DNA from: Schmidtea polychroa | Taxonomy: Eukaryota | Assembly: GCA_044892525.1 (NCBI GenBank) | Contig: CM097885.1 | Location: 32,676,001-32,740,000 of the forward strand | Reading direction: 5' to 3' | DNA length: 64,000 nt | Shown: piece after piece, positions 3,001-37,201 of the stretch | How positions within the stretch are numbered: position 1 is the stretch's first letter | Layout of the letters: every line of letters starts with the position of its first letter | The notes under the pieces: model-generated | Told to the model about the DNA's origin: nothing | The model's database searches: none | The model's input: only the letters and a program-made list of their open reading frames with translations | Program-made: the position numbers and the translations under genes

Positions 3001-5179
3001 AACCGAAGAAGCCGAGGTGTTGGGACAGAGCATTGAACCAATTCTGGAAGCCATCAGAGGAAACTTAGACAGAACAGCAGCAATGTTAATCAAATGGAAA
3101 CAAAACGAATTAAGAGCGGAAGTAATTGATATAAATCAATTCCAAAACAACGAAAATATCGTACTAAGAAGCGCCATATACTCAAGACCACCAATGCCAA
3201 AAACCATTAAAGCAATATTACAAAGAAATAGAGCAGAATTGACAGGTAATTGGTGGAAATGCACAAAAGCACATACGATGAAAAAGCAACTAGAAATACT
3301 AGTGTGGGAATGGCACCGAAAACAACGGAAATATCAAGGAACCAAAGAAGAACGAGAAAGTATCCACAACGATAAAAAAGAGATAATTAAAAAATACGAA
3401 GAGATGATCAAAGCGACAAATGTCGAGGACGACATTTTTGGGAAAACCCCGGGTGAGAGGAATGACGACGATGACGACGACGAAAGGATGGGGGATAACG
3501 ATAACAACCCAGAGGAAAACGACAGAGAACAAAATCCGGAGGGCGGAGAAACAACGGATGATGATGAGGAGTTGGAAGAAGACGACGATGACCAATGTCG
3601 AGGTGAAGATCAAGGATTCGACAAAACAGAAAACAAAAAACGAAAGTTCCCACTACATAGCATAATGTTTCGAAATCAAATCCAGCCAATCCTACTACAA
3701 AGAATATTTATAATATTAACATCTATCTGTTTAACGGAAACAAAAAATATGAGAATCGTAAGAGAAGCTTTCCAAGAAGGCGAAGTATTTATGATAAAAG
3801 TCAGCGATTACGACGGAAACGCCGTCGGAATATGTGTTCAACTAATGGAAGGAACAGGAGTAAGTTGTGATTTCAGATCGATAACAAAAGGAAAGATTTT
3901 TAACAGCCAAAAAAGAGACCCCAGGCTATGTGGAGATTATGACATTTGTAAAGACATAACAACAGAGGAAATGGAACTAGAAAGAGCTAATGAAACCGGA
4001 GTACATTTCCAACTTAACATTTTGGAAGAAGGTATCGAAATAGAAGATAAAGGGAGTCGATCAATTACACATGTATGCATCAGAGAAGACAGAGACATAT
4101 GCATAATAACTGATATGACACAAGACCACAAATTCTTCTGGGGAGAGGTCAAACCAAATACCCCTACTGTGGTATGCGCAGGAACACAAGGGATAGTAGT
4201 GTGTAAAGGAACAAGAACTGCACCAAGAAAAGACAAACCAAGGAGTATGGCAATTAAACAAGGTCCATTGACGGAGAAAACAACCAAGAAGCCCAAGAAA
4301 TCAGTTAGTACAAAAACAACAACAGAGCTAAATCGAAGCGAATTAATAACAACAACAACATGGATTAACGAAGTAATTAAAGACGAAAGACGGGAAGTGC
4401 AGATAACTATTAACCTCAACAAGAAAGGTGAAGAGGTAATTACAGTCAAAAACCAGGAAGGAGAACCAATCATAAGGATATGTGTAATGGATAAGACGGG
4501 AATAATCGACTGTACAACAACACCGATAGACAAAGGTACAGACGTTAAAATGGAGACAGGGAAACGGAAAGAACGATACCAAGTATGTATCCTTAAGAAA
4601 GGAAGAGGAACCAGCGTATGTCAACCAATAACTCGACAAAAACCCCAATTAATAAACATACCGTGGATACCCCGAGATCAAGAAGGGGGAGAGAAACGGG
4701 AAAATCACAGTCACCTAACAGAAAAAGAGAAGGAACGATTACATCAAGCATTCAAGAAAATCAAAGCACCAGAAACAAATACCACAGGTAGTACAATATT
4801 AACGACAGAAAAAACAAATAATGGAACAACGATCATCACAAAGATGATATGGATAACTAGCGCGATAGTAAGCACGATAATAGCGTTAGCAATGATTCAG
4901 TGGATAAGAACCACCAAAAGATGTAAACAAAAACCGAGAAACCAAAGAAAATGGCCCAAAGTGGAAAAATTTGAATACGGTATTCCAACAGAGAATCTGA
5001 ATCTAGAGGAATACGAGGTGGTAGAGGATCCCGGATCCAGCGGATTGTGGATGTCGGAGCTACCAAGAATACCCACGCCCAACGAATGGACACACGAAGT
5101 CGATATATACCGACTAACGGACGAAAGATATGGGGGAATGCGCACGCTGCATTCCGGTCCCATGGCGACACTGGTATAA
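2..5179 (+). CDS. pol: Pol polyprotein (5'-partial): RT, RNase H, integrase with GPY/F, then ankyrin repeats, acidic tract, Cys-rich region, TM helix and cytoplasmic tail
   Basis: Frame is open from base 2 (LKSGYWQI...KTAF...MPFGL). YIDD at 179-190; RNase H TDAS/EALAI/TDH; HHCC (HDGKLGGH..CLIC); DDE (MDVVGP, TDQGTNF, QTERFN); RGPY ~2192; ankyrin-like WPIHHAV, GKTPLMKAI, RTILRYAV ~2714-3090; TM MIWITSAIVSTIIALAMIQWI 4844-4906. Confidence 0.95.
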   Translation, partial: LKSGYWQIKVKEEDREKTAFTIGKDLYQFKKMPFGLTNAPASFQRCMNFVTHGIKQCMVYIDDLLIYSGTFEQHLIDIRNVFIRLKQWKLKLKPSKCDWAKERVTFLGHIVSAKGKEPDPRNVEKIKNCPIPKTVTQVQEFLGLCGYYRKFIKNYATIAKPIQELTKKDTPFLWEREQQIAFESLRDKLIASPILIHPDFKKPFLLATDASGYASGAVLGQWDEEKRERVIGYYSKTFKKHEKNYSVTEREALAIIQAIKHFKYLLWGHEIIITTDHQPLVWLGQHKEASSRLMRWAMQLQEYSPYIKFKSGKANANADCMSRFVFEELMDHDVRRICLIIAEDIDFTNLKNEQKEDNELKLIIEFLEKNDMKIFNNDDRLKEHMEKNRHRYTIEKGWLLVMDGDKRLMCLPESRRKEIMIQYHDGKLGGHMSAKKTEARLKQKYYWPNMSDDVKEWIKNCLICATRKTTGSKLKPPLKPMPIPPEPMTMIAMDVVGPLPETNSGNVYILVITDYLTKFPEAFAMPDQKARTVARILVEEICCRYGTPKQILTDQGTNFMSEIINEVTNYFRIAKLRTSPYHPQTNGQTERFNGILIDMMSNYVSKHQKDWDEYIKLCLMAYRMSIHSATKMSPFKLMYGRECNMPMDLEYQPPISQYMEIDDYVTKFKERMQEIWKTAGMNIRFNQESYKELHDKKKNVQNHQFKVGDWVIIETPELIPGTAKKLQRNGRGPYEIIYVNENNARVKLVNNPLIRPIYVNTCRCKAVAKTATKDPETRKIITRSQTNATTEPEVSGRLTRSQTRRIFMLRRETSSSANKGTETESEADAMARSQATWNMTVKIAREIVPEWANITNKYQVLGKLMIVAERYAKGRRNAEGVQVPTQMCELVRRLPIMFLTSDLSNNWPIHHAVKAGQEKRALEIIRIMENCKQSTNVKNSKGKTPLMKAIAIGASREVLRELLRTGSTLKEKDNKQRTILRYAVKSKRPSILSFITGNATTEEAEVLGQSIEPILEAIRGNLDRTAAMLIKWKQNELRAEVIDINQFQNNENIVLRSAIYSRPPMPKTIKAILQRNRAELTGNWWKCTKAHTMKKQLEILVWEWHRKQRKYQGTKEERESIHNDKKEIIKKYEEMIKATNVEDDIFGKTPGERNDDDDDDERMGDNDNNPEENDREQNPEGGETTDDDEELEEDDDDQCRGEDQGFDKTENKKRKFPLHSIMFRNQIQPILLQRIFIILTSICLTETKNMRIVREAFQEGEVFMIKVSDYDGNAVGICVQLMEGTGVSCDFRSITKGKIFNSQKRDPRLCGDYDICKDITTEEMELERANETGVHFQLNILEEGIEIEDKGSRSITHVCIREDRDICIITDMTQDHKFFWGEVKPNTPTVVCAGTQGIVVCKGTRTAPRKDKPRSMAIKQGPLTEKTTKKPKKSVSTKTTTELNRSELITTTTWINEVIKDERREVQITINLNKKGEEVITVKNQEGEPIIRICVMDKTGIIDCTTTPIDKGTDVKMETGKRKERYQVCILKKGRGTSVCQPITRQKPQLINIPWIPRDQEGGEKRENHSHLTEKEKERLHQAFKKIKAPETNTTGSTILTTEKTNNGTTIITKMIWITSAIVSTIIALAMIQWIRTTKRCKQKPRNQRKWPKVEKFEYGIPTENLNLEEYEVVEDPGSSGLWMSELPRIPTPNEWTHEVDIYRLTDERYGGMRTLHSGPMATLV

Positions 5180-5325
5180 CGAGAGGAGGAGTTGTTGTAA
5201 ATAATGTATAAATGAAATGATAAAAGTAGTGATAATAGTAGTAGTATGTACAAATAAAAATAGAAAATTAAAACAATATGTAGAAAATCAAAAACAAGTA
5301 TGATGACCATGTATTATAAATAGGA

Positions 5326-5781
5326 ATGAACCAGAGAAACGAATAGCAAGAACACCCAAATGGGATACCACATGTTGTTGAAGTAAGAGAACAGCCGCTA
5401 ATGAATGTACATCCAGTAGACATGATGGAAATGAACGTGCCAAACCAGCCGAGTCAGCCAACAGGATCCATGTGGAGGGCACAGTGTGAATTAATGACCC
5501 AATTGACAAATCAGACTCAAGAGCACTGGGTACGAAACCAAACGGCGTTGATAGAGAGTATTAATAGAAATGCAATATATATTACAAAAATAGAGGAACA
5601 ACACCAAATAATCGCGTAACTAGAGTATAATAACAATCAGTTAATAAGCCAAATCAGATGGCAAGCGGAAGAAATTAGAAGGTTGCATGAAAATCGACAA
5701 CATGATGATATTACCAGTTTAGTCGAGTGGATGACCGGGTTACCAGGAACAGGGGAACCGGACTCGACGGTAGATGTATAG
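5326..5781 (+). pseudogene. Disrupted cargo ORF, small coiled-coil protein
   Basis: ATG at 5326 follows an AG. The frame runs to TAG 5779-5781 with two in-frame stops (5344, 5617) and includes the listed 5401-5619 ORF; QAEEIRRL resembles motifs in the other coiled-coil ORFs. Confidence 0.6.
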
Positions 5782-5870
5782 GAGAGAAAGGAGTGAAATG
5801 TAAATAATCCTGTAAATAAATAGAGTTATAATCAAGTAGAAATCCCAAGATTAAAAATCATCATTGTAGA

Positions 5871-7294
5871 ATGCAAAACAAAGCAGAGGAAAACCGGAGA
5901 GAAGCAGAGGAACAAAAGATTAACTATGAGTTGATGAGAAAATACCAAGCCGAGCCGGACGAGTTCGAAGAGAGATTATTATGTGCCGATACAGCATGTA
6001 GAAGATTATTAATTGGAGCAAGTCAAACTCGATGCGGGTGTAGATTGTGCCGAGGGTGTGATATAAGATTAGCCAGACTAAAGCGAGAAACTTGTCCAGG
6101 ATGTGGAGAAGCATTTAAGTTGGTTCCCACTGGTACGATACCGGATAGAGCAATGAACCGAGAAATCAGAGAAGTGAAAATAAGATGCACCCAAAGGTCA
6201 TGCGAATGGACAGGCCGAGTAAAGGAGTTAAGAGCCCATACAGACGTATGCGAATATCTAGAATCGGAATGCGAAGCATGCACGGTAAAGTTGTTACGAA
6301 AAGAGAAAACCAAACATAAAGGGGAATGCGAAGCGCGAACGGAAAAATGCGAATTTTGCGGAGAAACTGCTAATTGGAGAGAAATCGAAATGGAACATCG
6401 AAACGCAGTAGAAAGACGGATTTGCGACGAATATACAGGGAAATGCCCAAACGAGTGTGGAGAAATTAACAACGTCAGATTAAATGAACATTGGGAGATA
6501 TGCACGAGAAAAGCAATAAGATGCCCAATGGTGACATTCGACTGTAGAGCACAATTACCAGCAGAAGAAATGAAGAAGCATGTGGAGGAGAATACATTCG
6601 AGCACATGCAAAAGATGATGAGAGCAATAGAGTTAACAGCAAGAGCAATTGAAGACGTCAAAGACGAACTCAAATCACATAAAATCATGATAAAAGAAAT
6701 GCTGAGCTCACAGGAAAGCTTCGAAAATACGAGAGAAGCCGTAACACAAAGGATGTTGAAATTAGACGACAAATTAGTCGAAGTAACTAAATTACAAACC
6801 AAATGGACTACAAAGGAACTGACAACAGAGGAACTACCAATACTACCATACATGTGGAAAATCCAAGGAATAACGGAAATAATGGAGCAAGCAAAGCAAG
6901 GAATCCAGACAACGATAGTGAGCAAACCATTCTACGCCAAGAAACATGGATACAAGATGAAATTGAGATGGTTTCCAAATGGTGAAGGAAAGTTTAAAGA
7001 TCGGTGCATGTCCATATATATGCAAATTTGTAAAGGAGATTTTGACGACCTAATAGCATGGCCATTCCGACATAGATTAAAAATATCTCTCTTAGGAGCA
7101 AAAAAGACACATATAATGTGTTTTCGAGCATCCAGTCCAGCAGGGAATAAACCGATTACAGAGGTTAATCCTGCGGTAGGAGTAGCAGAGTTTATGCAGC
7201 TATACAATTTAATGAAGGGTCCTACATAGAAAAGGACACTATATTCTTCCTAATCGAACTAGATGAGGAAGGACCAACAATAGAAATACGATAG
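5871..7294 (+). CDS. TRAF-family protein (RING, TRAF zinc fingers, coiled coil, MATH); frameshift near 7220
   Basis: RING-like CADTAC..CGCRLCRGC..CPGC; CEWTG..H..VC zinc fingers; MATH SKPFY..GYKMKLRWFPNG..SIYMQICKGDFDDLIAWPF. The last MATH strand SYIEKDTIFFLIE is in a shifted frame (7220-7294). Confidence 0.92.
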
Positions 7295-7434
7295 ACGGAT
7301 AGAAGGGAACTGTAAATATTTTGTAAAAACGATGTAAAGTAAATATAAAGTTATTGTATACAGTAAAGTAACTTGCCAAAACCATAAAAATTAGAAAAAG
7401 AAAATGTAAAAAGAAATGATGAAATTTATTATAG

Positions 7435-8613
7435 ATGATTAATCAAGAGAGACCGAATATCCGAAAGAAAACGATCACAATGAGAGAGGAAGAGGACAAT
7501 ATGTCACCTAGAGAAAGAGTGAAGGATGCGGAAGTCAGCAAAACAAAACCAAGTAGTTACGCATATTATCGAAGAATGGGAAACGATTATAATTGGGTAC
7601 ACGAAAATTTGAAACTGGGAGATAATGAACAATTCAGATGTGAGAACCAGAGATATCTGTCATTTGAAGATCAGACCATTTTCACCAAGGAACAGAGCCG
7701 AGCGCTAGCACGCGACGGATTTTTCTTCTCCGGAAAACCAGAGATACCCGATCAAGTAACGTGTCGTTTCTGTAAAGGGAAATTAGCAGAATGGAAAAAA
7801 GGAGAACACCCAAAGGAGGAACATCGTAGACGATTCCCAACTTGTCTATTCGTACTGGGATTTGATGTACACAACAAACCGGAAATCAAATACGAAGCCT
7901 TGGAGAAATTGAAAACTGAAGACGAAAAAGGAGGGAAAATGAGCATCGCGATAACCAGAATCGTTGATGAGTATGTTCCAACTTGTGAAGGGGAATTCCT
8001 CACGCAAATAGCAGATAATAGAATGAAAACGTTCGGAGATGATACGAGAGGACCTGAATTAGCAATAAGAGGGTTCTACCTAACAGAAAATCAAATACTA
8101 AAGTGTGAAAGATGCGAAAGCCAACAGAGATTACCGGAAGAAGGCATACCAGAAATTAGACATCAAGCATGGTGCCTATATCACAACGAACAAGAAACCG
8201 AATATCCGGAAGTACTAGTAACAGAGGAAGAGGTTGACGAAGTGGTAGACAAACCCAACATGTGCAGAGCGTTGAAAGCAGCCGGAATAGGCACGACAAG
8301 GGCAAAGAACATGATTAGAGAGAGACTACAGAAAAATGTACATATACCAACAACAACGTACGATATGATCAGAGCGATAACCCAGTATAGAGAAAAACCT
8401 GAAACAAAAATAAAAGAAGAATCAATAGTCAAAACAGCTATCTTACGAGATATCAAATGTACTATGTGTTGGGAGAGGAGTGTAGAAGTTATTCATATGC
8501 CATGCGGACATTTGATCGCATGTGCCACGTGTAGTAGGAAAATAAAAGAATGTCCAATGTGTAGACAGAGGATTGCGCAGCGAATCAAAGGATTTCGCTA
8601 CGCCGATCAATAA
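7435..8613 (+). CDS. Inhibitor of apoptosis (IAP): BIR, degenerate second BIR, UBA-like region, C-terminal RING
   Basis: BIR1 RYLSF..LARDGFFF..DQVTCRFC..W..H....C; BIR2 RMKTF..LAIRGFY..CERC..H...C; RING CTMC..PCGHLIACATC..CPMCR. Confidence 0.95.
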   Translation: MINQERPNIRKKTITMREEEDNMSPRERVKDAEVSKTKPSSYAYYRRMGNDYNWVHENLKLGDNEQFRCENQRYLSFEDQTIFTKEQSRALARDGFFFSGKPEIPDQVTCRFCKGKLAEWKKGEHPKEEHRRRFPTCLFVLGFDVHNKPEIKYEALEKLKTEDEKGGKMSIAITRIVDEYVPTCEGEFLTQIADNRMKTFGDDTRGPELAIRGFYLTENQILKCERCESQQRLPEEGIPEIRHQAWCLYHNEQETEYPEVLVTEEEVDEVVDKPNMCRALKAAGIGTTRAKNMIRERLQKNVHIPTTTYDMIRAITQYREKPETKIKEESIVKTAILRDIKCTMCWERSVEVIHMPCGHLIACATCSRKIKECPMCRQRIAQRIKGFRYADQ

Positions 8614-8696
8614 CGAAAAATAAAAATTTCGTGTATAAAGTGTAGATAATAAATGTATGAAATAATAGTAGTAGTAATAGTGTAATTATTTAGACA

Positions 8697-10295
8697 ATGA
8701 ATAAAGAATCACAAACCTATGTGGAAACCGAGATGCAACAACTCGAACAGTACAAATCCATCATACAAACATACGAAGCAGAAAGAGTAAAGAGAGAAAT
8801 AGAAATGTACAAAACCATGTATGAGAAAAAGCAACAAGAGTTAGAAGTGGAGAAGGCGGAAACACTAGCAGCAAAAGAGAAGTGGATGAAACAGGTAGAG
8901 GAATTAACCGAAGATGTGAGAAATACATCAACATACCAAGAATTGGAGGAGGAGCTCTCGAACTTACGAACTCAGCGGATTATGGAGATAGTTGGGTTAT
9001 GCGGAGAGATAATAATGCAGAAGACACAAATTAGAGAAGCAAAGGAGCAATACGAGGAAGAACAGCGTAAAACGGAACGAATAAAACTACAAGCGCAACA
9101 ATGGAAACGAAAATACGAAACCCTCCAAACGAGGCAGAATGATAGTCACGAACATCAAATACGAGGGTATAAAGTAGAACTAGAAGAAGCAAAGAATCAA
9201 TGTGCAATGATGAAAGAAAAATGGGAAAGATGCAAAAGGACCCTAAGCGAAGTCAGGGGACAAGGGAGGAGAACACCACGTAAAGAACCAATCGTTAAAG
9301 ATAACGTATTAGAGCGAATTAACGCACAAATAAAGATACAAGCTCAGAAATGGAAGTATAAATATCTAGGAAGTCAAACCCAAGTGCTCTATTGGAAAAT
9401 CAGTAGCAAGGAACAACTGCGATTACGAAAAGCAGACCAAGAATTTTACGAAATAAGGGCTACACAGCGAGAAGAAGAGGAAGTAGAGTGGAGAAAACGA
9501 CAGCAGAAATTTGAGGAAACCGAAGAGTGTCTCAAGCATCAAGCCCGAAAATGGAAAAAGAATTGGAAAGAGACCAAAGAGGAGTTAAGACAGTTACCAA
9601 TGAAACTGATGGAAAGAGACGAATTTAAAATGTGGGAAACGATAGAAAACCAAAAAGATGAGATCAGCCGATTGAGTAGAGAACATAGAATCAAGACGCG
9701 GACCAGCGACGGTAGACGGAGAGTCATAAAGAAACAGACTCGAGAAATAAGAAGGTATGAATACCAGGAAAAGAGATGGGAACAACAATTGACAGACCAA
9801 GATCGACAGATCCGACAATTACAAACAGAGGTAGAGGAAGCTAATCAAGAGATGAACGGATATAAAGGTATGTACACCCAAAGGGATGTGAATTGGAAGC
9901 ATCAGATTGCGCTTAATGCGAAATGTAGAGAGGAGTGCGATAAGGCAATTCAACAAGCCAAACAGGAAACCGAGATAATAAAACGATGCTTCGAAGAAAA
10001 TGAAGCGAATCTGAGAGCAGAAATCGAGAAGTTGAAAATGCTTGAAAAAACCCAACGATTGGAAGAGGAATTGGATGAGATGATAGAAAACGAAAGTAGA
10101 TTAACGTTTCTGTTGGATGAAGAAATAAACATCGCAACGGAATTGCGGGAGGAAGTAGAGCGGTTAAGAAGACAACCACCAATACTATTAATGCCACTCT
10201 ACCCGTTCCCATTACAAGTGCCACAGCCTGCCGAAGTTACAGCAGATGAAGGCTTCGAAGAAAATAACGAACAAAATAACGCAACATGGATTTAG
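8697..10295 (+). CDS. Long coiled-coil protein of unknown function (cargo)
   Basis: 532-aa intact ORF, E/K/Q/R-rich heptads, internal repeats QAQQWKRKY / QAQKWKYKY / QARKWKKNW, Pro-rich tail. Confidence 0.85.
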   Translation: MNKESQTYVETEMQQLEQYKSIIQTYEAERVKREIEMYKTMYEKKQQELEVEKAETLAAKEKWMKQVEELTEDVRNTSTYQELEEELSNLRTQRIMEIVGLCGEIIMQKTQIREAKEQYEEEQRKTERIKLQAQQWKRKYETLQTRQNDSHEHQIRGYKVELEEAKNQCAMMKEKWERCKRTLSEVRGQGRRTPRKEPIVKDNVLERINAQIKIQAQKWKYKYLGSQTQVLYWKISSKEQLRLRKADQEFYEIRATQREEEEVEWRKRQQKFEETEECLKHQARKWKKNWKETKEELRQLPMKLMERDEFKMWETIENQKDEISRLSREHRIKTRTSDGRRRVIKKQTREIRRYEYQEKRWEQQLTDQDRQIRQLQTEVEEANQEMNGYKGMYTQRDVNWKHQIALNAKCREECDKAIQQAKQETEIIKRCFEENEANLRAEIEKLKMLEKTQRLEEELDEMIENESRLTFLLDEEINIATELREEVERLRRQPPILLMPLYPFPLQVPQPAEVTADEGFEENNEQNNATWI

Positions 10296-10325
10296 TCGGA
10301 GAGAGGTTGCCTGTAAATAAGAATG

Positions 10326-10355
<30 letters not shown>
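10326..10355 (+). repeat. A30 homopolymer in a cargo spacer
   Basis: 30 consecutive A, shortly after TGTAAATAAG. Confidence 0.95.
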
Positions 10356-10360
<5 letters not shown>

Positions 10361-10454
10361 AAGCCAAAACCAAATAAAAATTACAAATTACAAAACCAAA
10401 AATTCAAAATAAAAGGGAGACGAAAGGAAAAATGATGTGTATATTTTTGTAGAT

Positions 10455-11165
10455 ATGAATTATTTAAAAGACAGAGAATCAACGAGTAACGCAAGAAAAT
10501 CAATTGACCAACCTGAACAAAGCCAGAATACGATACCAATCAAACAAGAACCGATGAAATATTATAGTAATAAATGGAGAGTCAGCAAGAAGTTGTTCAA
10601 AACAAAAATCGCAAATCAAAATGTAGAGATTACGAGATTGAGACAGCATATTGTTCAATCAAGACGATTAATAAACACTGTCAAGCAGGAAATTTTGAGG
10701 GAAATAAATGAATCGAAACTAAAAGAGACGGAAAATAAAAACCTGAGACAAGAGATAGTAGAGTTGAGAGCTCAGGCAGTAATCGAAGACTATTGGAAAT
10801 CAGAAACAAGGAAGTTGAAAAAGATTGTGAATATCGACCAAGTGTATATCGAACAATTGGAAGCACAATACGCTTATGCAAAAGCGAGAATGCGGGAAAG
10901 TAAAAAGGTCGACAAGAGAAACGCAAGACTCAAGGAGGAGATCAAGGAACAAAGAGAGGAAACAGAAAAACAATGGAAGTTGAAAGAGAATTATCGGAGA
11001 ATTTTAAATCAAAAACGACGAAGCATGCAAGCACTGCAGACGACAATGACCATCAGACAGAGAAAATGGAAAAGTGAAGAGAAGCGATTACAAGAAATGC
11101 CAGAATTAAAGAGACAGTTGATGGCAACGCAACTCGAAGTAATAAGGATGAACGAGTTGAGTTAA
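10455..11165 (+). CDS. Coiled-coil protein of unknown function (cargo)
   Basis: First ATG at 10455 after TTTTTGTAG; basic coiled-coil composition; IANQNVEITRL resembles IENQKDEISRL in the preceding ORF. Confidence 0.8.
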   Translation: MNYLKDRESTSNARKSIDQPEQSQNTIPIKQEPMKYYSNKWRVSKKLFKTKIANQNVEITRLRQHIVQSRRLINTVKQEILREINESKLKETENKNLRQEIVELRAQAVIEDYWKSETRKLKKIVNIDQVYIEQLEAQYAYAKARMRESKKVDKRNARLKEEIKEQREETEKQWKLKENYRRILNQKRRSMQALQTTMTIRQRKWKSEEKRLQEMPELKRQLMATQLEVIRMNELS

Positions 11166-11297
11166 GACGAGCACCTGAACCTCCCGTAAAATTAAGGGAT
11201 GAGGTCGGTGGCTCCCAATAAATGAGATAAAATAACTGTGTAAATAAATTGTAAATAAAGCCAAGTAATTATTATTAACGTATATGTATATGTAAAG

Positions 11298-12284
11298 ATG
11301 AGAAGCCTAACCGTGGTGATAATTATAATGACAATGCCCAGAATCCTGCAAGCTGAAGAATCAATGATCAGATGCCAGAAAGAATACCCATATCGCAGAG
11401 AAGATAGCACCTGTAGTAGCTTTAAATCAATCTGTGAAAAACCCAATGAAGAATGCGAACAAATCAAGTTGCAATGTTCGCAATGTCCACAAACAACTGG
11501 AAGTTCGACGGAAATGCAAATGGCTCAGACAATGAAAACAATATTAGAACAAGAAATGAAAGTTATCAGAACCCAGATAGCAACATTAGCCAAACAATTC
11601 CAAAGCCAGAAATCAAAGAAAGAAACCCAAACGGATCCGGCCGCAATGAGAATGATGGTAATAATATTAGAGGAAATAAAACAACAGGTAACAGCAACCG
11701 CCAATGGACGTTCAAGCAATTGCGAAATAGTAGTAAAATCTTTAGAGGAAATGAAAGGGAAAATAACTTCCATCATCAAAGAGGAACCCAGCATTAAAAA
11801 TGAGGTAACGAAAACATTGAAAGAAATGACAAAAGAAGTCCTAACTACCATAAACAAAAACCCAATGAACTCCGAGAAGATGATTAAAACCCTGGAGGAA
11901 ATAAAGAAAGTTGTCAACTCGGAAGAAAACAAATTCAACAAACCCGAAAAATCAGAAATTACAGATACAACCCAATTGGGAGAAATGATAAACAAACCCA
12001 GAGTAGTAGAACTAAGAGAATCTGAACCCCTCACAATATTGATCCTATTAGCGGCAAGCCTAATGATAAACATTACCGTACTGAGCCTGATTGCACTCAA
12101 ACCCAATTCCAGTAAAGCAAGAAACAAAACCCTCAAACTAAAAGAACAATCAAAGAATATTCATATCCCAATGGAAGAACAGCTAATCCAAACAACGAAC
12201 CAACCAAGATACTTCAAATCTTCCCCAAACATCGAAACCAGAGCCGTCATCGAGACGAGATCCCGAACAACAGAATTCTATTAG
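11298..12284 (+). CDS. Type I membrane protein: signal peptide, 6-Cys domain, helical stalk, TM helix, tail with PxEE (TNFR-like or env-like)
   Basis: N-terminal MRSLTVVIIIMTMPRILQA; C-x12-C-x6-C-x6-C-x6-C-x2-C; repeated KTLEE(I/M)K-type stalk units; TM LTILILLAASLMINITVLSLIAL; PMEE at 12168-12179. Confidence 0.85.
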   Translation: MRSLTVVIIIMTMPRILQAEESMIRCQKEYPYRREDSTCSSFKSICEKPNEECEQIKLQCSQCPQTTGSSTEMQMAQTMKTILEQEMKVIRTQIATLAKQFQSQKSKKETQTDPAAMRMMVIILEEIKQQVTATANGRSSNCEIVVKSLEEMKGKITSIIKEEPSIKNEVTKTLKEMTKEVLTTINKNPMNSEKMIKTLEEIKKVVNSEENKFNKPEKSEITDTTQLGEMINKPRVVELRESEPLTILILLAASLMINITVLSLIALKPNSSKARNKTLKLKEQSKNIHIPMEEQLIQTTNQPRYFKSSPNIETRAVIETRSRTTEFY

Positions 12285-13298
12285 TGTGACATCATGACAG
12301 TAAAAACATTTCACGACATTATAAACGATAAATCATCCTGATCGAACAATTGATTTCAAAGACTGAGACTACGATTAATGACACTGATTCTTGAGCATGA
12401 TAATGTTATTTTTATGTGGGCCGACCTCGGTCGTTCTTTTCCTTCATCTTTCAACCCATCTGTAAAATGTAGTGTAATAGTAGCATTTTTATGTATGTGG
12501 GTATTGAGGTCACGACCCTGTAGCTCGTGGACCCAATTTGCATGTAGGCACTTGTAATATAGTGCAAGTATTCTGAAAATTAATCTTATTCATCTTTGGA
12601 TTTAAATTGCGGGTCGCAATTTTATGGGCCCCCGAGTGTTTTATGTTGGGCTAGAACTGATTTCTAGACCCAAACTACTAATTGTGACTGAAACGTGCAG
12701 GTACACAACATGTAAAAAGCAAAAAGTATAGTTAAATATTAAAACCTACACCAAATAAACAATATTAACTAAAGGAGAAAGCAACAAAAACATAAACAAA
12801 GAAATTAAATAAAATTATACAGAAGCAAGAAGTGATGCAAAAATCTAACTCAAAAATAACCAAACAAACATAGAATTACCAAAAGCAAACTCGAATAACT
12901 TAAAAGACGATAAAAATAGTAAAACATTCCAGAAAGACCCAGAACATTCTATAAAATGGCGATGACCATCACAAAAGTCATCTAGAACAACAAAAGTTAA
13001 GGAAAATAAATGAATTAGTATTAAAAATAAAAAATCTCAAAAAGAAATTCATAAAAACATCAGTTAAAAATAAAAATTAAATTAAAAGTAAAATAGAATG
13101 TTCTGGAACCGTTCCAAATCCATCATGGACGTAAAGTAATGAAAAAATAATTAAAAAATAAAAATTTAAAAATAAAAACAAAAATTATAGCACAAAAATT
13201 TCCACAAAAAATATAAAAATCATGAAATAGAAAATTCTGGAATAAAAAGAATTCGAGTTTGTTTTAACGCATCAATACATACACGTGTACAAAATAGG

Positions 13299-13307
13299 TA
13301 TATATAC
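13299..13307 (+). promoter_or_regulatory. Candidate LTR TATA box
   Basis: TATATATACTG at the switch from A-rich to T-rich + strand; equivalent position to TATAAATACTG (~20756) in the short LTR. Confidence 0.4.
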
Positions 13308-16202
13308 TGACACGTTTCAGGCACATTAAGCATTATTTTGTTTATGCCAATATTTTATTAGAAATTTTCCGAAAATTATTAGTAAGTAGATTTTTCTTTT
13401 GTTATTCGATGTTATCATGATTAATGTAACTATTTTAATGTAGATTAATATCCATAAGATCAATTTCTTTTTATTTTTTATCTTTTATTAAAAATTTTTG
13501 TTTGAATACGACTGATCAGCGGCGTCTCAGTGCGTCTCTGTTCAGTCCTGCATTTGATATTAACAATTTTTGAAACATGCAGACATGCCATATTCTATAT
13601 ATATATTTTTTTTTGTTTGGTCATCGGAGGTCGGCCACTTCATGGTTCTACCATGGAGTTGTGTCGATAAAACCCCTCCGCTATGGCTCTATATGCTTTA
13701 TTTATCGGTCGACAGTGATGTTTCGACTCAACACAACAGTAGGGCTTGTCGTAGCGGTCACAGTGGGGCCGTGTAAGCAAGCATTCTTCCCGAGTACAAG
13801 CAAACATATTTAATTTCAACATTAAAAATCGTAGACAATAGGGTACACTAAGGTCATAATCGAGTAGATCTCAGACCCAAATTGAACACAGCAATTACAA
13901 TTCAGCTAATGTAGTCGGTTAAGACCTCTCCACTTACACGTTTGTCGAACCTCATTGAGAAATAATTTTTCGTATCAGTGTAAATGTCTCTCTCGAAATT
14001 GACCGTAATGATGCTCACGAAGGAGTTCGACAAGCGTGAATCGTAAAATGAACTATATACTCTCCTGTTACACTTAAACATCAGGCTATAAATGTATAAT
14101 GTTCCTAAACTATAGAATATATGTTAGAATTGCTAAATACTTAGAATTCCTAAATGGTAAAACATAACTTACTACCGTACTTAGAATTATATGTGATAAA
14201 TACGTAATACCTCTAAATTACAAATATGAGTTAATATTGTCTTCAAAAATATAATTTATAAAAGTTAAATTGTCAAATACCTCTTAATACTATGCCTGAA
14301 AATAATGCGGAATATTCATAAATTATAAAATTTTACTTTATACTATCCTCAAAATTATAATCTATAAATGTGTAAAACATAATTTATAAATATGAAATTA
14401 TAATATACATGCTTGAAAAGCAATTTTAAAAATGTGTAATATTCCTAAATTATGAAATTTTACCCTATATTATTCTTAAAATTATAACTTATACCTGTGT
14501 AAAAATATAATTTATAAATGTCAAATTGTAAAATATAACCTAGTACTATGCTTGGAGGTATAATTTATTATGAAATATAACCTATTTCTATACTTAAAAA
14601 TATAAGTTAAAAAGGTACGTAAATAATTTTTATTGTACCTAAAAATATGATTTATAAATATGTAATATTACTAAATCATAAGATTGTATTGCTTGTGGTT
14701 CGTAAATCTTACCTTGAGATTATCAGTAGCAAACTAAAATGTAAACTCATACTACGTATAAATTATAAATTATATCTTAGTATTTTCTGTATAAAAGTAT
14801 AAAGTCATGCTACTCATAAAGTACAAATTATGTCTTAGAATTATACACAAAAATATAAACTATAGGTTTATATTGCCCATCAATTATAGAATGTAACGTA
14901 TGCATAGAATGCAAATTACAAACTATAAGGTATGATTTTGGTTATAAGTTATAATTTCGGTATCCATAAATACAAATTATAAATTCCAAAGAATAGAAAC
15001 TATTACTAGCTATATATAGCTCATGAGTCCGTAAAGTGTAAATTGCAAGGCTGAAGTGTGGATTATGGAATAATTATATAAAGTATAAACCGTAGATTAT
15101 TTTTATAAAAGTATAATCTAATTATATGTCTAAATTATAAAATTATATATCAAAATTATCTATCTAAAAATTATATATCTAAATTACACCTCTAAATTAT
15201 ATATCTAAATTATATAAACTTATAAAATACCATCGTAAATTTAGATTACCAATTATAAACTATGATTTCATACTCCATATAAGGTAAAGGACCAAATTCT
15301 GAATTCTAAGTTTATATTTCGTATATAATTGATGAATGACGAATGTATAAAATGTACAGTTGCGTATGCGAAATTAGCTAGGTTATAATTAACCCCTACG
15401 CCAAAATCATGGAGTACAATGACAAACATAAAGGAGAAGCACGCCCGACCTCTAGATCGGAAACCGCAGTGAAGCTTGACGGTAATTTAATTAAAACTAA
15501 TTTAACATCCAGTCGAAAGAGAGAATAATATTTAACATTTATTTTACAACATCAAGGTTCTAGTGGGCTGAACCAGGATTGCCGAGAGAAGTTCATTGTG
15601 GGCTGGAGTCTTGCATACTCCAGCTGTTCCCGCTCGTTGCTGGGAATTGCAAATAGGATTGACAGTTGCGGATAATTCCTGAACTTTACGAATCTACTAA
15701 TTTTAAATTTACAGTCTAACTTACTTCGAAGGATCCAGATGAATTGCAACACAGAAGGGAATGAATCTAAAAATCTAATATACCAAAATAAACTAAATTT
15801 ATCAGAAAAAAGTTTTTAAATATTTAAAAGCCTTATAATTACATGTATTTAAAATTTACTATTCAAAACCATTGTAGTTTACTTTAAATTTGACCTTATT
15901 ATGATTGTTACGATAAAACACCGTAAAATATGATTAATTGGTAATTTCCGCGTAAGGTAAATTTTAATGTATAGTGAAAGACTTGAATTTTAATTTAAGC
16001 AAAAGTTGAGGGTACCCTTTCAAGTACAATTTAAGTTAATCTGATTAATTGTTTAAATTATGAACATTTGGAGTTTGTTTCGTATTTTAAGCAAATTTTT
16101 TTGTTGTGTGTGGTTTCATATTAGCCCGCGAGCGTTGTAGCAGAGAGAAGCGTTCTCGTTTGCATTGTGATAACCTTATTAATCATTGCTACCCAAACAG
16201 AT

Positions 16203-16568
16203 ATGTCACACTCAGACGACTACAGCGATGATGACGGCTACAGACAAATAATCACCCGGCTCCGGTCCCGGTACGTCTGGTTTCACATCCATCGGTGGAG
16301 CCAGGGACGGGACTTAGATTGTTCCAACCAAGTAATCCGGACGGGCCCCGAAGTGGATGCCCCGGCGTGGGTAAAAGTAGAGCCCACCAACAACGTGCTC
16401 CGGGAAGCCCGCGATCGAGCGGCCGATGAGGTGGTGGAGGCCCAAAAGCGGCTGAGGAGACTCGAGCTCCAACTCAAAGCCGAAACACTGGGGGTAACTC
16501 TTGAAGAGCTGGAGGAGACCGACACCCCTCCACGAAAACGGGGAAGGCCCCGCAAGAACCTGGCCTGA
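16203..16568 (+). CDS. LTR-encoded small protein with coiled coil and C-terminal AT-hook
   Basis: GC-rich ORF in AT-rich surroundings; ATG directly after ACAG|AT; PRKRGRPRK at 16530-16556. Confidence 0.7.
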   Translation: MSHSDDYSDDDGYRQIITRLRSRYVWFHIHRWSQGRDLDCSNQVIRTGPEVDAPAWVKVEPTNNVLREARDRAADEVVEAQKRLRRLELQLKAETLGVTLEELEETDTPPRKRGRPRKNLA

Positions 16569-16881
16569 CTCATCGACAGGCGCGGCTTGAATGGAATGGT
16601 TTTGACTGATTTCATCCAGTGATATTTTACCTTGTAGTAGCATGACGAATTGTATTTTTCTTTTGTTCGTTAAATCTTGACAATATAGTCTATCGTGTAT
16701 CTTCGTAGTGCAATAAATTAATTTTTGTTTCGCTATTACATTTTGAACTTTATAGCTAATGGGGTGTATTCATGATTGAGGTGCCCCTTTTCTCATCACC
16801 CACTTATTAATTTCATGCACGTACTCTAACCAACTTTGCGCACCTGGATGCGAGCGATGGAATTTATTATTATTTTCTTCA

Positions 16882-17316
16882 GTGTACCAGTTATTGGAAA
16901 ACCTACGAAAGGACCGCGAACAGGCCCAGCAACAATCCGAGGGTCTCCGAGGTCGGGTCGAAAAACTCAAGCTGAAGTATCGAGAACTCCAAAGTACGTG
17001 GTTCAGTCCGGCCGACATGAAAAAACAAACTACGCGCATCTCACAACTCCAGACCCAGGCGGAGCAAGATCAGCTCGAGATCCGAGCGCTGAAGCTACAA
17101 GTGCGCTCGCTCGAGAGTAAATTGAACGAAAGGATTGTCCAGGACACCCTTTGCGAGCAGATTCGTCCTCTTGCCGTAGAGTTGGCCCGGATATACCCAC
17201 CGGCCCAGACGAACAAGCCGAAACGCAAACGGTTAGGGCGGAACACCCGAGAGAAATTGAAAAGGGCCTGGCTGGCCGAGCAGGAGAAAGGGAAAGAGCC
17301 GGAAGGCAATCCATGA
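16882..17316 (+). CDS. LTR-encoded coiled-coil protein with basic NLS-like tail; needs splicing or a GTG start
   Basis: GC-rich ORF beginning at a strong acceptor TTTTCTTCAG; heptad pattern; KPKRKRLGR. Confidence 0.6.
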   Translation: MYQLLENLRKDREQAQQQSEGLRGRVEKLKLKYRELQSTWFSPADMKKQTTRISQLQTQAEQDQLEIRALKLQVRSLESKLNERIVQDTLCEQIRPLAVELARIYPPAQTNKPKRKRLGRNTREKLKRAWLAEQEKGKEPEGNP

Positions 17317-18360
17317 TCTTGGGAGGCGTTCGAGAGTGCGTGAACAATCCGTGTAATATGGTGGTGGCTTAATAAATGAGTCTTGTTATTTAATGAGTAT
17401 GAGAGTGAACTTTGCTGTTGTCAAAAACAGGATGGTTGGCGGGAAGGCGCTTGGAAAAACAATCTCGATGAGGGACCGAAATAAATCGGACACGTGCCTT
17501 CTATCGGCGTCCGTGAACCCATAGAGTGCTCGACAATTACAGTGCTTGGCGCGCTCACTTTTTGCGAGTACTCAACCCCTTGGTACAGTACCAACGTTGA
17601 TTGCTCAACGGGTACCAAGAGGAAAACAATGTTGTATTCTGGGTTACGCTGGTAACAGCACTTAAACATTCAACCACCAGTAACCCACCATGACTTTCAG
17701 AATATTTCTTATATATTTTGATGCCCCTTGCTCGCTTCGCCTGTTCTCTCATAATAAATTGTCACTACATTTTTTTATATAATATAAAGAGTAAAATAAA
17801 TTTGAGAATTTCACTAGGTGCCGCTTGTAAAGAATTTGTGGTGGCTAACCTATATCTAGGCGCAATTCGTTCAGTCGGTAATTTGTTAAGATCTTTTAAT
17901 TTAAATACGGAAAATTCAACTTTGAATTTTGAAATGAATCATTTTTTAACAAAAATGGTTAAAAATCTTTACTACTGAGAAAATTGAATAAAAGTGAACA
18001 ATTATTATTAATTATTTTTTAAATTAATCAAATTTAATTATTTAAATTTTATATCTTCTTTACCGCGGTAAATTAACCAAAATGGCTAAAAATGAAAATT
18101 TTGTGGGTAATGAATGCGTAAAAAAATATTTATACTATTTTAATATCAATTTAAACGCAATTTTAAATTGAAGATGTAATGTATCGGTGCAAACAAATAT
18201 AGTTTAGGATAATAGATGAAGAAGCTTCACCACTCGTGTCTTAGATACTACTGCATATCTCAATATAATGAAATATTTCAATTATAAATAACAAACGTTT
18301 TATATTTTGTCGTTTTTTTCATATTGAATATTAATTATCTTGAACATAAATATATTTCAG

Positions 18361-18657
18361 GGATTTTTTGTGGCTCTGATTTATTGCTTCCTCAATCGTG
18401 AAGTTAGATTTGTCTTAAAAGCAAAATATCGGAGTTTCCGAGGGTATTTGCCAAGTGCTAGTCGCACAAGACAAACTATTGATGATTCAATTGGTCCGGT
18501 TCGAAGGGGAAATTCAGCATTTAGACCTCTCAAACAAGATTATGACAATAAAGTTTTCAAATGTCGATCCTATCGCTCACAGCACAATAATAATGGAAAC
18601 AATGCTAACCCGGTTATTCAAAAGTATGAAACCAATGTTGAAAATCAACAAGCATAG
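18361..18657 (+). CDS. Terminal coding exon of a class B (secretin-family) GPCR: TM7, helix 8 and C-tail
   Basis: TTTCAG acceptor then (Q)GFFVALIYCFLNREVR, the class B TM7 signature; stop at 18655-18657; AATAAA at ~18835. Confidence 0.88.
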   Translation, partial: GFFVALIYCFLNREVRFVLKAKYRSFRGYLPSASRTRQTIDDSIGPVRRGNSAFRPLKQDYDNKVFKCRSYRSQHNNNGNNANPVIQKYETNVENQQA

Positions 18658-19191
18658 TAATCATAGAATTTAATCTTGTTTTAATTAACTGTCTCAATGT
18701 AATTCACATGTCCGTTTTACAGTTACAGAACGGAAATTTATGTTAATGTTTTGTGACTTCATTTGTTCATTTTATTCTGTATATAGGCATTCATAACCAT
18801 TTGTTTTGTTTTGTAATTGTCAACAAATATGAGGAATAAAAAAACTTTATTTTTGTTACAGAACTTCATTTTTATTTTGAAGTTGGAATAAACTCTGGGA
18901 GACTTTTAATTGTTTTCGTTAAATCTTTTATAACAAACAATAAATTTCAAATGTATATGTATTGGGGGAGGGGGGGGGGGGGGTAGTAACTTTAAAACCT
19001 AATGGGGCACTAGGACTAAAAATCGAGGGAATACTTTTTTTCGAAAATCTAAACTTTATATTTTAAAAACTCTAAACCGTCAAACAAACGAAGTATATTT
19101 TAAAAGAATCATATTTATCGTCAGTCAGCCATCATAATCTATATTAACAGTTATATACAGAAACAATAATGGCGTAATAGTTATAATTTAA

Positions 19192-19431
19192 CCCTCTCCG
19201 TGTAAAAAATAATGCTGATATTTATAGTGACCCGTTCTATTCCCACAAAAACGGTTACAAAATGTGCCTTCAGCTTCATCCCGATGGATTCAAAGCTGGA
19301 AAAGGGACACATCTTTCTGTTTTCTTTTTCATAATGCGCGGTGAAAACGATGTACTTTTGCAATGGCCTATGAAACTGGAAGTGACATCTTGCTTTAATG
19401 TCGAATATATTCGACAAATATACGGAGAGGG
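19192..19431. mobile_element. 240-bp piggyBac-like non-autonomous element containing a TRAF MATH-domain fragment
   Basis: TTAA-CCCTCTCCGT ... ACGGAGAGGG-TTAA; subterminal palindrome TGTCGAATATATTCGACA; + frame reads IYSDPFYSHKNGYKMCLQLHPDG..GKGTHLSVFFFIMRGENDVLLQWP. Confidence 0.75.
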
Positions 19432-20134
19432 TTAATGAGTTAATTAAATAATTTCAGTAAATTCGTTGCTGATTGAATGTTAATTGTGGGGGTTGTGATT
19501 TAGTAGCCAATGTCTGACATAAAAAAATTTTCCACCTAATATTAAAGATTTTTATATAAAATTTTAAAAGATTTTAAGTTAGTTGTCCTTTTACACATTT
19601 GCCTATATGGATTAACGTCTTTCTGAACTTGTATGTGTCACATATACTAAAGATACTTCTGTCAATTACGTAATCAAATTTGGTCTGCATCCTAATCTTT
19701 GTGCGTTGGATTTTTAATTGTTCTCATTTATATAACCCCGACAAATGTAAAGGCTAGAAATTTTTTAGCTAAATGTTTTGGAATTATTCTGAAGTTCTTT
19801 ATGATTTTAAGCAAATTATATTTTCACAATCTACCAAATTAAATTCTTAAATTTTATAATTGTTTTCTTTTATTAAAACAGTAACAAAAATTTTTATTAA
19901 TTCACTCTGACTCCAATCGTGTTCTTGTGTATCAAATTAATGAACTCCAACATTATTAATTTATTGATACCAAAATTTACAACATAAAATATAACACTGA
20001 GAATAAATTGGAAGTAATTATAAAATTATGCATACACCAACAAGAATGGCTATAAAATTAAATAGTGAGAAGATCTTGCCAATGAAATTATTTTTTATTT
20101 CTTAGTTCATTTGATTAACCTTCAATCTCTTCGT

Positions 20135-21753
20135 TATTTGGGCTAGAACCTAGAATTGAGAACTTGTTTTAATGAATCAAAAATATATAAAATATAAATC
20201 GCACCAAGTTAAATTAAAACACCAATCAATACAAATTAAAGTACATAATACATTGATGATAAATAAGACCCGGGTGATAAAATAAAGGAACGCAAAAAAA
20301 GTCGCCATCACTAACACAATTAGGAGAAATATCGCCTTCGGAATATCTAACAACTAAAAAATAAAATAATAATGAATAAAATAATGGGTAATAAATTAAT
20401 TAATAATATGGAAAATTTTTAAATAAATAAATTTGAAATCTAAAACAAAATATCTAGTAAACTCATAAAATGATAAAAAGTAGAATTAAAGTAGTAAAAT
20501 TAGATAAATTATAAAATTTATAAAACCAAATTGTTTAAATCAATGAAACTAAAATAAAATTAGCAAAAACTATTTAAATTATAGAATTTATAAAAATAAA
20601 TCTTAAAAATTAATAAAAATTAGAATTTTGATTAATTAAATTAATTAAATTTAAAAATAAACACATTCATGCATGCATGCAAAAATTAATCAGAATTGCC
20701 TCGCATCCTAATTGGATATAGTAGCAGAGAATGCGTAGGCGTACAATTCAATCAGTATAAATACTGATTACAAATTCATTTGAAAAAACTGGTTTTTCAG
20801 ATTTACACAACAAATCGTTTTTCAGGCAGTGAACATATGCTCTCAATTTTCGATTTTATGCCATCGTGGTATTGGATGTGGTAATTTTATTTGTTAATTT
20901 GTAATTTTTAGGTAAATTTTTGAAAGTTAATAAATCTTTGTATTACATTTAGTTTTAGTCAATTTTTTTTGTTTTTGTTCTTTTTAATTGTTTAATTTCA
21001 TTTAGTTTTTAAGTTTTAAATAATAATTTTTATTCGGTTCAACTTTTACATTAATTAATTTTGAATAGTAGTTATAGTGGAGCTGGAATCCAGTAGGCCA
21101 CAGCTTAAGGGACACTAGTTGTTCCTCTTGCGAGTAGGTTGGCTGGCTTTCAGATTCAGACGGATTAATCGGGCCATAACGTGGGGGCTTCTCCACTTGT
21201 CCGTCGCCGTAAGTATTTTGATTGGAACTTAGGTCAGAATTAGAAATACAGGCAGATCCCTGCTCAAATTTTTGAAGAATAATTTAAATATGGGAAATGT
21301 AGATTAACTTGGAAATAAGGTCCGATCCCTGTTCAAATTCTTTGGAAGATAGGTTAAATATTCATAGATATCAAGGAAAACAACATTTATTAATAGGAAA
21401 ATAAGGGTGGATCCCTGCGTAAAATTTTAGAAAAGAACAATTGGTAATACCCGTAATTGAGGACCACAGATAATCTAACAACAGCATAGATAGTGAATAA
21501 TGACGTAAGGCCTTCTATAGGCAGTCCAGAACCCGAAGAGAAAATACAATGCGGAGTAGTTTTAGCAATAGAGCTCAGCTGCTCATTGTTTTTTCGCCTT
21601 TGTGTACAGTATCAACATGGTCGTCACCATGGTTACACAAATGGTTTATAGTACAATAGTCATGGAGGTGCTTAGGAAAGAGTCGAGTGAATACCTGTGA
21701 TTACCCCTAACGTATTTAAAATTAAAAAATGACACACCCTTAAGTAACCAACG
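20135..21753 (+). repeat. ~1.6 kb LTR, probably the 5' LTR of a truncated Gypsy element
   Basis: Colinear with 40942-42627; termini decayed (TATTTGGGCTAG ... TAACCAACG); followed by a PBS-like sequence. Confidence 0.85.
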
Positions 21754-30027: not shown

Positions 30028-30808
30028 AGTAGTAGGATTGGAGCTCCCCAGATCAGGAGCTCCCCGCATCACATATACCCCCTCCCCCCCCCCCCCGGGA
30101 AAAAAAATTTTTTTTTTTAATTTTTTGTTTTAATTAATTGGCCTGGCGGGCTCACACTTTTTTTCATCCCAAAAATTAATGTTCCCACCAACATATTTTA
30201 TTGACCGATACCTCATCTTAAAGCCCAGTCCAAGACCTTTCGAATGAGCTATAGGTATCATATATATCTTTAATAGTTTTAATGTTATTAACAATTGATG
30301 ACCACCATCTTTTCAACGTTAAATTATTATTATTATTCAAAATATTATTAATTGGCCGGGCGGGGACATACTTTTTCTCATCCCAAAAATTAATGTTCCC
30401 ATTATCCGAATTTATTAATCGATAGCTTATTTTGAAGCGTAGTCTAAGACCTTTCAATTGAGCCATAGAAGGTATCATCATCATTAATATTAACAAAGAG
30501 AATGACTCACCCAATGACTCACCCAACGATGTCTAATATTTTTAGAACGATGACTCATCAAGGTCATTCCCAAGGTCATATGACTCATCAAGGTCAAGGT
30601 CATTTTTTTTTAATTTAATTTTTTGTTTTAATTAAGTAATCTTTTTATTTTCAAGGTCATTTAATTTTCAAGGTCATTTATTATTTTCAAGGTCATTTAT
30701 TTTTTCAAGGTCATTTATTTTTTCAAGGTCATTTACTTTTCAAGGTCATTTAATTTTCAAGATCATTTATTAAAATAATTATTATTTTCTAAGTTTTTAG
30801 TTTCTAAG

Positions 30809-30868
<60 letters not shown>

Positions 30869-31997: not shown

Positions 31998-32058
<61 letters not shown>

Positions 32059-32253
32059 ATTATAATTATTATATACTCATAGTCTATCCGACAAGATATT
32101 CTGTCTCCCTATGGGTACTGCACACAAATGTACTACTCACATTCAACAAGTCACCAGGGTACTGCTCACAATCAACAACTCGCTAGGGTATTATTAGTAT
32201 TATTAATAATGACTAAGATATTTTCAAAGAATTATTATTACAACTCCCAAGAA

Positions 32254-36516: not shown

Positions 36517-36532
36517 TAATAATAATAATAAT

Positions 36533-36622
<90 letters not shown>

Positions 36623-37200: not shown

Positions 37201-37201
<1 letters not shown>

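Follow-up and report, generated by a model that had tools for sequence, protein, structure and literature searches.

To our knowledge, proteins encoded within LTRs are uncommon, MMTV sag being one example. The sag/naf frame lies inside the MMTV LTR and can be expressed from the LTR promoter, and Naf is a transcriptional regulator (partial text of PMC9412291). CERV, encoded by the gypsy element Cer1 of C. elegans, is an orphan nuclear protein made from a spliced mRNA, with a leucine zipper or coiled coil and a monopartite NLS, and it is required since the Cer1 genomic RNA keeps its splice sites (PMC10309623, in the portion available). Additional ORFs of plant LTR retrotransposons are also orphans outside their elements, and some are spliced (PMC7264820, in part). 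Giant planarian retrotransposons are abundant, have tissue-specific expression, and are controlled by PIWI (PMC8532177, excerpted text). Burro/GYPSM1, which is very large, at over 30 kb in total, and has multi-kb LTRs, shows the RT-RNase H-integrase order, with env placed between gag and pol, and has ankyrin, MATH/TRAF, and BIR domains, a long Smc-like coiled-coil cargo, and accessory ORFs; its MATH, BIR, and ankyrin domains lie in one 4,873-aa gag-env-pol polyprotein, and the available part of its description names no ORFs within the LTR (PMC6431247). In the literature searched, the expression mode of the many accessory ORFs of giant planarian elements was not described, and no paper on AT-hook additional ORFs or on spliced ORFs within retrotransposon LTRs was found; Grohme et al. 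2018, whose extended data may already include LTR ORFs, and Repbase could be informative on how long the LTRs are and on ORFs within them.

The window analyzed here is a stretch of 64,000 nucleotides from Schmidtea polychroa that contains part of such an element and, downstream of its cargo, two GC-rich reading frames, ORF1 and ORF2. The locus is a real, unusual feature of a known giant-element kind. We favor, at a probability of about 0.5, the reading that the two frames are the element's own spliced LTR accessory genes, used as alternative last exons on an LTR leader, and that they encode nuclear self-regulators. The whole case rests on a single copy of the element.

The giant element and two GC-rich frames downstream of its cargo

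The window opens inside a Ty3/gypsy pol frame (positions 2 to 5179, plus strand), and the 5' part of that frame is cut by the window start. The RT-RNase H-integrase order of Ty3/gypsy pol is present (RVT_1, 2e-25; RT_RNaseH, 8e-39; Integrase_H2C2, 2e-21; rve, 9e-13) and is followed by ankyrin repeats (Ank_2, 1e-7) and a long tail. Six cargo ORFs follow on the same strand (5326 to 12284), namely a small ORF, a TRAF, a BIR-RING IAP, two coiled-coil ORFs, and a signal-peptide/TM ORF. The Pfam families found in the element are Ank_2, MATH, zf-TRAF, BIR, and RING; the coiled-coil ORFs match no Pfam family. The small ORF (5326 to 5619) has an acceptor and an ATG, meets a stop at codon 7, and has no Pfam match. 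From RT to the inferred LTR end, the visible length is 17.7 kb, the window opening inside pol. The element's sequence features make it a giant gypsy of Burro/GYPSM1-like type, and we class it as Burro-like, not as Burro1. Unlike the arrangement described for Burro/GYPSM1, ankyrin is fused to pol here, and the TRAF and IAP are separate downstream ORFs, each behind a splice acceptor.

The end of the element is bounded above by the last exon of a host class B G protein-coupled receptor (GPCR) gene at 18361 to 18657 on the plus strand (VIP receptor 2; E of 3e-6). The giant element thus likely lies within the last intron of this same-strand host gene, whose mRNA could be truncated by the element's acceptors and poly(A) signals. 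Other features of the window include an isolated TRAF MATH fragment at 19187 to 19435, with 40% identity over 52 aa to the TRAF of the element; a foldback-like structure at 30028 to 39546, with nested inverted arms of up to 471 nt at 99% around a 4- to 5-kb center, the arms being made up of (TAT)n tracts together with repeats of 18 nt and 214 nt; and a SET-domain ORF (E of 2.5e-12) of 490 codons without introns at 44206 to 45678 on the minus strand, with a GC content of 0.41, which is possibly transposon borne.

The cargo ORFs have a common layout. An AG stands 0 to 3 nt before the first ATG in all six (background, 113 of 324 ATGs; P of 0.002), and a YAG stands there in five of the six (background, 33 of 324; P of 6e-5), a count in which the TAG is in two cases also the bounding in-frame stop and in which the smallest ORF was delimited by eye. 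The motif TGTANATA, which was chosen by eye, is present in all six spacers upstream of the cargo ORFs (5180 to 11297), with 8 copies against 0.72 expected and 0 of 2000 shuffles reaching that number. We take it to be a Pumilio-element-like motif or a UGUA-plus-poly(A)-signal motif. It is absent downstream of ORF1, of ORF2, and of the final cargo ORF. One cargo spacer contains a 31-nt poly(A) tract at 10326 to 10356, 14 nt after TGTAAATA.

The ORF1 exon (16201 to 16568, plus strand) follows an AG at 16199 to 16200; its ATG at 16203 lies 2 nt past that AG, and it encodes 121 aa up to a stop ending at 16568. The ORF2 exon (16883 to 17316, plus strand) follows an AG at 16881 to 16882 and is open in phase 1 for 143 codons, with full codons from 16885 to a stop ending at 17316. 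The original observation that ORF2 has no ATG of its own held, the earliest in-frame ATG being at 17017 (codon 45, Met45). Phase 1 is the only open phase at both acceptors (121 and 143 codons). A splice acceptor had been proposed before each frame, and an AG is indeed present at both; that of ORF2 (ttttcttcAG) is good, but that of ORF1 (cccaaacAG) is weaker and ranks 9th among 137 AGs with a splice matrix trained on 5 heuristic introns alone and used for rough ranking. ORF1 and the cargo ORF at 10455 have the junction AG/ATATG in common. Because the cargo ORFs show the acceptor-then-ATG layout, ORF1 and ORF2 can be tied to the splicing scheme of the element.

The contrast in composition between these frames and the A-rich cargo, claimed from the start, was borne out. 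The GC content is 0.60 for ORF1 and 0.54 for ORF2, and the third-position GC content (GC3) is 0.68 and 0.64, respectively, versus 0.35 to 0.41 for pol and cargo, in which A occupies 0.41 to 0.50 of third positions, and 0.11 to 0.30 for three small host exons. Values computed for the pol tail and for the GPCR last exon from out-of-frame segments were left out of the comparison. An origin of ORF1 and ORF2 as host exons was ruled out by GC3 and also by their stops and poly(A) signals. An AATAAA at 16712 to 16717 (plus strand), after which a T-rich stretch follows, lies 3' of ORF1, and another at 17371 to 17376 (plus strand), with a TGTA 19 nt upstream, lies 3' of ORF2.

Length is weak evidence of coding for ORF1, which was reached in 104 of 2000 dinucleotide shuffles over plus frames and 369 of 2000 over six frames, and modest evidence for ORF2 (48 of 2000 and 150 of 2000, respectively). 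Codon-position bias is coding-like in both (P of 0.002 for ORF1 and 1.6e-5 for ORF2; 0.23 to 0.85 for three noncoding flanks), in a test on which the very choice of stop-free frames puts a slight bias. The remaining plus frames over the region have 1 to 7 stops each. Other ways of reading the region were rejected. In-frame splicing of ORF1 to ORF2 fails on phase, the three good donors within ORF1 being in phases 2, 0, and 0, not 1. The A-ending one of these, at 16332, is followed by GC-rich sequence, and its use leaves the ORF1 ATG out of frame. A +1 frame at 16848 to 17120 (ATG at 16848; 90 aa) shows the codon pattern that a shifted frame would give, and it matches no family; it has a hydrophobic start and overlaps the acceptor and the 5' half of ORF2. 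Among 20 sequencing runs listed as matches, 15 contain part of positions 12300 to 18700 and 4 contain at least half (one study), and no RNA run is among the matches listed.

Position relative to the inferred LTR

The inferred 3' LTR spans 12644 to 17690 on the plus strand (5047 bp; TGTTGGG ... CCCACCA) and was placed by a solo LTR of a related family at 40942 to 42627 (plus strand; TGTTGG ... CCAACA, with attt on both sides). A second solo-LTR-like copy of this related family, at about 20138 to 21753, has its start in common with the 12644-type LTR. The two copies are 77 to 80% alike and are 1.6 to 1.7 kb each. The first 14-mer of the solo LTR at 40942 occurs at only one other place in the window, which is 12644 (1.6e-4 expected), and the two have a common profile, A rich and then T rich. 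At the other end, 17690 scores highest of 7100 positions in the end-anchored comparison with the solo end, a score equaled at 15296, where the terminal CA is lacking; within 13 to 20 kb, 17690 is the best CA-ending match, with 1 mismatch in 7. Scores as high are found at 57 of 63602 window positions, and 17690 ranks third against the second solo copy and is one of 11 TIR-like 7-mers in 13 to 20 kb, the others including 14882 and 16199. These comparisons make the placement of the left end strong and make 17690 the best, though not a decisive, candidate for the right end.

No TSD was found around 12644 to 17690 and no TGG after the LTR, both as expected for a 3' LTR. No purine run of at least 10 was found before a TG in 11 to 19.5 kb, and the 19 nt before 12644 are mixed; without a polypurine tract, a canonical 3' LTR start at 12644 is less certain. 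The interval just upstream (12625 to 12643) has a small hairpin and a palindrome-like stretch rich in GC, and with no polypurine tract there, plus-strand priming in the family of this element may be unusual. Since the window starts inside pol and contains no second copy of the LTR, we infer the location of the ORFs inside an LTR from the evidence at its two ends. On that evidence it is probable that ORF1 and ORF2 lie inside a 5-kb LTR. The original claim that the ORFs lie inside the LTR is thus supported indirectly, and the missing polypurine tract and the indecisive right end leave it short of certainty.

The LTR contains a degenerate AT-rich tandem array at 14085 to 15350 (plus strand), with 127-nt and 13-nt periods and a GC content of about 0.2, which is a candidate AT-hook target. 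No counterparts of ORF1 or ORF2 were found in the two related-family solo LTRs of the window. Both of those copies have two overlapping open frames of 51 to 56 codons in their most conserved 3' part, with 4 to 5 GATCCCTG repeats between the two frames.

The ORFs might instead lie outside this LTR, because it ends earlier or because 12644 belongs to another element, and form part of a separate nested or neighboring mobile element. We consider this unlikely, although several observations fit it. The codon usage of ORF1 and ORF2 is sharply unlike that of the cargo and neither is followed by TGTANATA, which also counts against the reading that they are the element's own; in addition, there is the absent polypurine tract at 12644, the TIR-like 7-mers at 14882 and 16199, and the short related solo LTRs, which carry no such ORFs. 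However, a search around the ORFs for marks of a nested insertion gave no A/T run of at least 8, no direct or inverted repeat of at least 12 nt, and neither a TSD nor a TIR nor a poly(A) tail, and the family searches described below gave no transposase, RT, or viral match. Position 16199, the end that would put the ORFs outside the LTR, has a similarity score of 0 to the solo end, and ORF1 has the junction layout of the cargo.

Predicted proteins and searches for relatives

In the structure model of ORF1 (pLDDT of 61), the N-terminal part is of low confidence, aa 63 to 96 form a helix, and the tail is free. The tail sequence PRKRGRPRK that had been read from the DNA was found within TPPRKRGRPRK at aa 108 to 118 (16524 to 16556). 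AT-hooks bind AT-rich DNA in its minor groove. The ORF1 tail is identical at 8 of 11 positions to the AT-hook consensus TPKRPRGRPKK given in PMC11354804 (partial text), and it has the RGRP core with basic flanks; the pattern [RK].RGRP[RK] was matched by 9 of 100000 residue shuffles of ORF1. HMGA has the same core and flanks and differs in carrying three hooks, as far as the available part of PMC11354804 describes it, whereas ORF1 has a single C-terminal copy. Against the Pfam AT_hook family (PF02178), the 22-aa tail scored 14.1 bits (E of 0.043), below the gathering cut-off of 17.4. The AT-hook claimed for ORF1 therefore survives at the motif level but not at the family level, and the motif also overlaps PRKR, which, like PKRK in ORF2, is a monopartite NLS pattern. 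By its sequence, the tail is AT-hook-like and is not assigned as a PF02178 member. AT-hooks are also reported to bind RNA (PMC11354804, in part), and binding of its own AT-rich LTR DNA may be one of two possible functions of ORF1, RNA binding being the other.

The ORF2 model (pLDDT of 88) consists of long helices. Prediction of a homodimer gave a parallel coiled coil over aa 3 to 90 with a score of 0.57, versus 0.00 for the best of 3 controls, with contact agreement of at least 69% and pLDDT of at least 75 across the runs. Of 30 microbial pairs, 21 attained the mark used for this score, against 0 of 23 single chains; for eukaryotic pairs the figure was 17 of 29 (7 of 16 in animals), against 0 of 30 single chains. 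Likeness to solved coiled coils may be enough for a plain one to pass the mark. ORF2 is thus predicted to be a coiled-coil dimer with a basic tail, the latter containing PKRK at aa 112. Among the features of Rev- and CERV-type proteins, the NLS pattern is present and a homodimer is predicted, and NES-like patterns occur at chance level (2088 of 10000 shuffles).

Both proteins are orphans in the searches made here. No homologs near query length were found at an E of 0.01 or less for ORF1 (19 candidates) or ORF2 (81 candidates), nor longer homologs of ORF2 (921 candidates). The single ORF1 match among 50% representatives, a 701-aa repeat coiled coil matched at aa 52 to 90, was rejected as reflecting composition only. 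An atlas search gave no match for ORF1 and, for ORF2, matches at 0.90 with low recognition to unnamed phage-like clusters, which are leads only. Viral contigs had no match to either protein, and metagenomes had none to ORF2. A metagenome match of ORF1 (20 of 64 parts scanned) proved to be the antisense of a bacterial transposase, presumably of IS110 type, and was discarded as chance, the two sharing just 9 selected-for residues. Pfam and PHROGs gave nothing at cut-off for either protein, with no transposase, RT, or viral match. Fold searches with both models gave no hit at an E of 0.001 or less, the best Z being 5.2 for the ORF1 helix, and no sequence or fold match of CERV to ORF1 or ORF2 was found. 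Rfam had 0 matches over 12200 to 18400.

These data also bear on the notion that the frames are decaying or passenger sequences, ORF2 having lost its start in this copy or using Met45, and the basic tails being plain nuclear-import signals. All of the other cassettes have their own ATG right behind the acceptor, at least one cargo ORF in this copy is broken (that at 5326), the AT-hook score is below the cut-off, and PRKR and PKRK fit the monopartite NLS pattern. We nonetheless regard decay as distinctly improbable, since both frames are stop free with coding-like bias amid plus frames that are not, RGRP in its complete context seldom arises by chance, and the ORF2 coiled coil begins at residue 2 to 3, ahead of Met45.

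Expression schemes and comparison with known systems

The cargo acceptors occur in phases 0, 1, and 2, and therefore a noncoding leader is the simplest partner for them. A candidate leader lies at 13298 to 13381 on the plus strand, where a TATA-like box and a short noncoding exon precede a GTAAGT donor at 13382. This GTAAGT is the only one in the LTR, is preceded by A, and is 84 nt past the TATA-like box; beyond it, the number of T residues in 100 nt increases from 38 to 52. The leader contains a 5-codon upstream ORF at 13344. The order of TATA-like box, TTTATGCC, and donor is common to the LTR and both solo LTRs, but local alignment of the promoter and leader with the solo LTRs was not significant, 93 of 500 and 137 of 500 shuffles scoring as high. 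A leader at 13.3 kb implies that more than 4 kb of LTR lies past the start site, which is unusual. The original prediction held that a preceding exon ending in A would complete an ATG for ORF2 across the junction. A candidate for that exon does exist (13381/GTAAGT), yet chance would place about one GTAAGT in a 5-kb stretch and the homology to the solo LTRs is not significant, so the claim gains a concrete partner that is short of proof.

A second scheme, which we hold as a tentative alternative of lower probability, makes ORF1 and ORF2 the second exons of one gene with a common coding first exon, that is, two isoforms with the same N terminus expressed from a promoter just past the AT-rich array. 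The candidate first exon (15409 to 15481, plus strand) is 73 nt long, with an ATG in an A-3/G+4 context, 24 codons plus 1 nt, and a phase-1 donor (cg/GTAATT), and phase 1 is the only phase in which both LTR acceptors are open. Its donor matches U1 at 6 of 9 and ranks first among 50 GT sites in 15250 to 16200, GC content falls from 0.52 to 0.20 across it, and TATA-like boxes lie at 15322 and 15346. Against this, ORF1 has its own ATG 2 nt past the acceptor, the exon is in frame with just 2 of 6 cargo acceptors, and codon bias is undetectable in its 24 codons (P of 0.58). An upstream phase-1 ATG is moreover found at 14 of 50 GT sites (at 3 of 50 with at least 20 codons), and there is a second phase-1 candidate exon at 13577 to 13772. 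As an optional middle exon, 15409 to 15481 is compatible with the leader scheme, of which the coding-exon scheme is largely a variant.

The acceptors could also serve for trans-splicing of a spliced leader, by which a polycistronic RNA of the element would be resolved in an operon-like manner. Spliced leaders are known in flatworms, with AUG at their end (PMC12582326, partial text), short spacers with TGTA and AATAAA stand ahead of the cargo acceptors, and of the 6 cargo ORFs, 3 would be in frame with a phase-0 AUG. Such an AUG, however, reads 30 codons at the ORF2 acceptor and 16 at that of ORF1 and so cannot start ORF2, which makes this scheme very unlikely. The confidences that we attach to the rival readings overlap, and their total is not one.

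In the favored reading of self-regulating accessory genes, transcription from the LTR promoter would give a short noncoding leader ending at 13381 (A/GTAAGT) that is joined to the acceptor of either ORF1 or ORF2, and the final A of the leader together with the ORF2 exon would form an ATG across the junction. Solo LTRs would express the ORFs as well, because the LTR would contain the promoter and leader together with both exons and their poly(A) signals. The AT-hook-like tail of ORF1 would bind the AT-rich array of the LTR (14.1 to 15.3 kb) and support transcription, action at the RNA level being an alternative. The basic tail of the ORF2 dimer would bind nucleic acid and probably aid the passage of full-length RNA that is unspliced, a role that CERV has for Cer1; a requirement for a factor of this kind is suggested by the many acceptors and internal poly(A) signals in the genomic RNA. 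A wider version, which we find doubtful, would make the LTR a regulatory gene complete in itself and expressed by alternative splicing; the leader would serve eight alternative acceptors, two in the LTR and six in the cargo, in the manner of a viral late unit, with the ORF1 AT-hook transactivator and the CERV-like RNA factor of ORF2 forming an early switch that solo LTRs throughout the genome could go on supplying in trans.

If the favored reading is true, regulators encoded wholly in an LTR would persist wherever a solo LTR is left and might act in trans. Such trans action is a feature of complex retroviruses and is rare among retrotransposons. The acceptor-then-ATG layout offers a directly testable expression scheme for the accessory ORFs of giant planarian elements, and if ORF1 and ORF2 turn out to be passenger or decayed frames, it is this observation on cargo splicing alone that stays.

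Each of the known systems differs from this locus in arrangement. In plant elements, most additional ORFs are located after pol and before the LTR (PMC7264820, in part). CERV is likewise encoded between pol and the LTR, with exons in common with gag, and is a 517-aa protein with NES, Cys-rich, and G-like domains (partial text of PMC10309623). MMTV is a vertebrate retrovirus with one intronless ORF region in U3 (available part of PMC9412291), whereas the present locus belongs to a retrotransposon, has two exons, each with its own acceptor and poly(A) signal, and shows no sequence relation to the MMTV frame. ORF1 and ORF2 would resemble MMTV sag/naf as coding frames within an LTR and CERV as orphan nuclear proteins made from spliced mRNAs, and they are members of neither.
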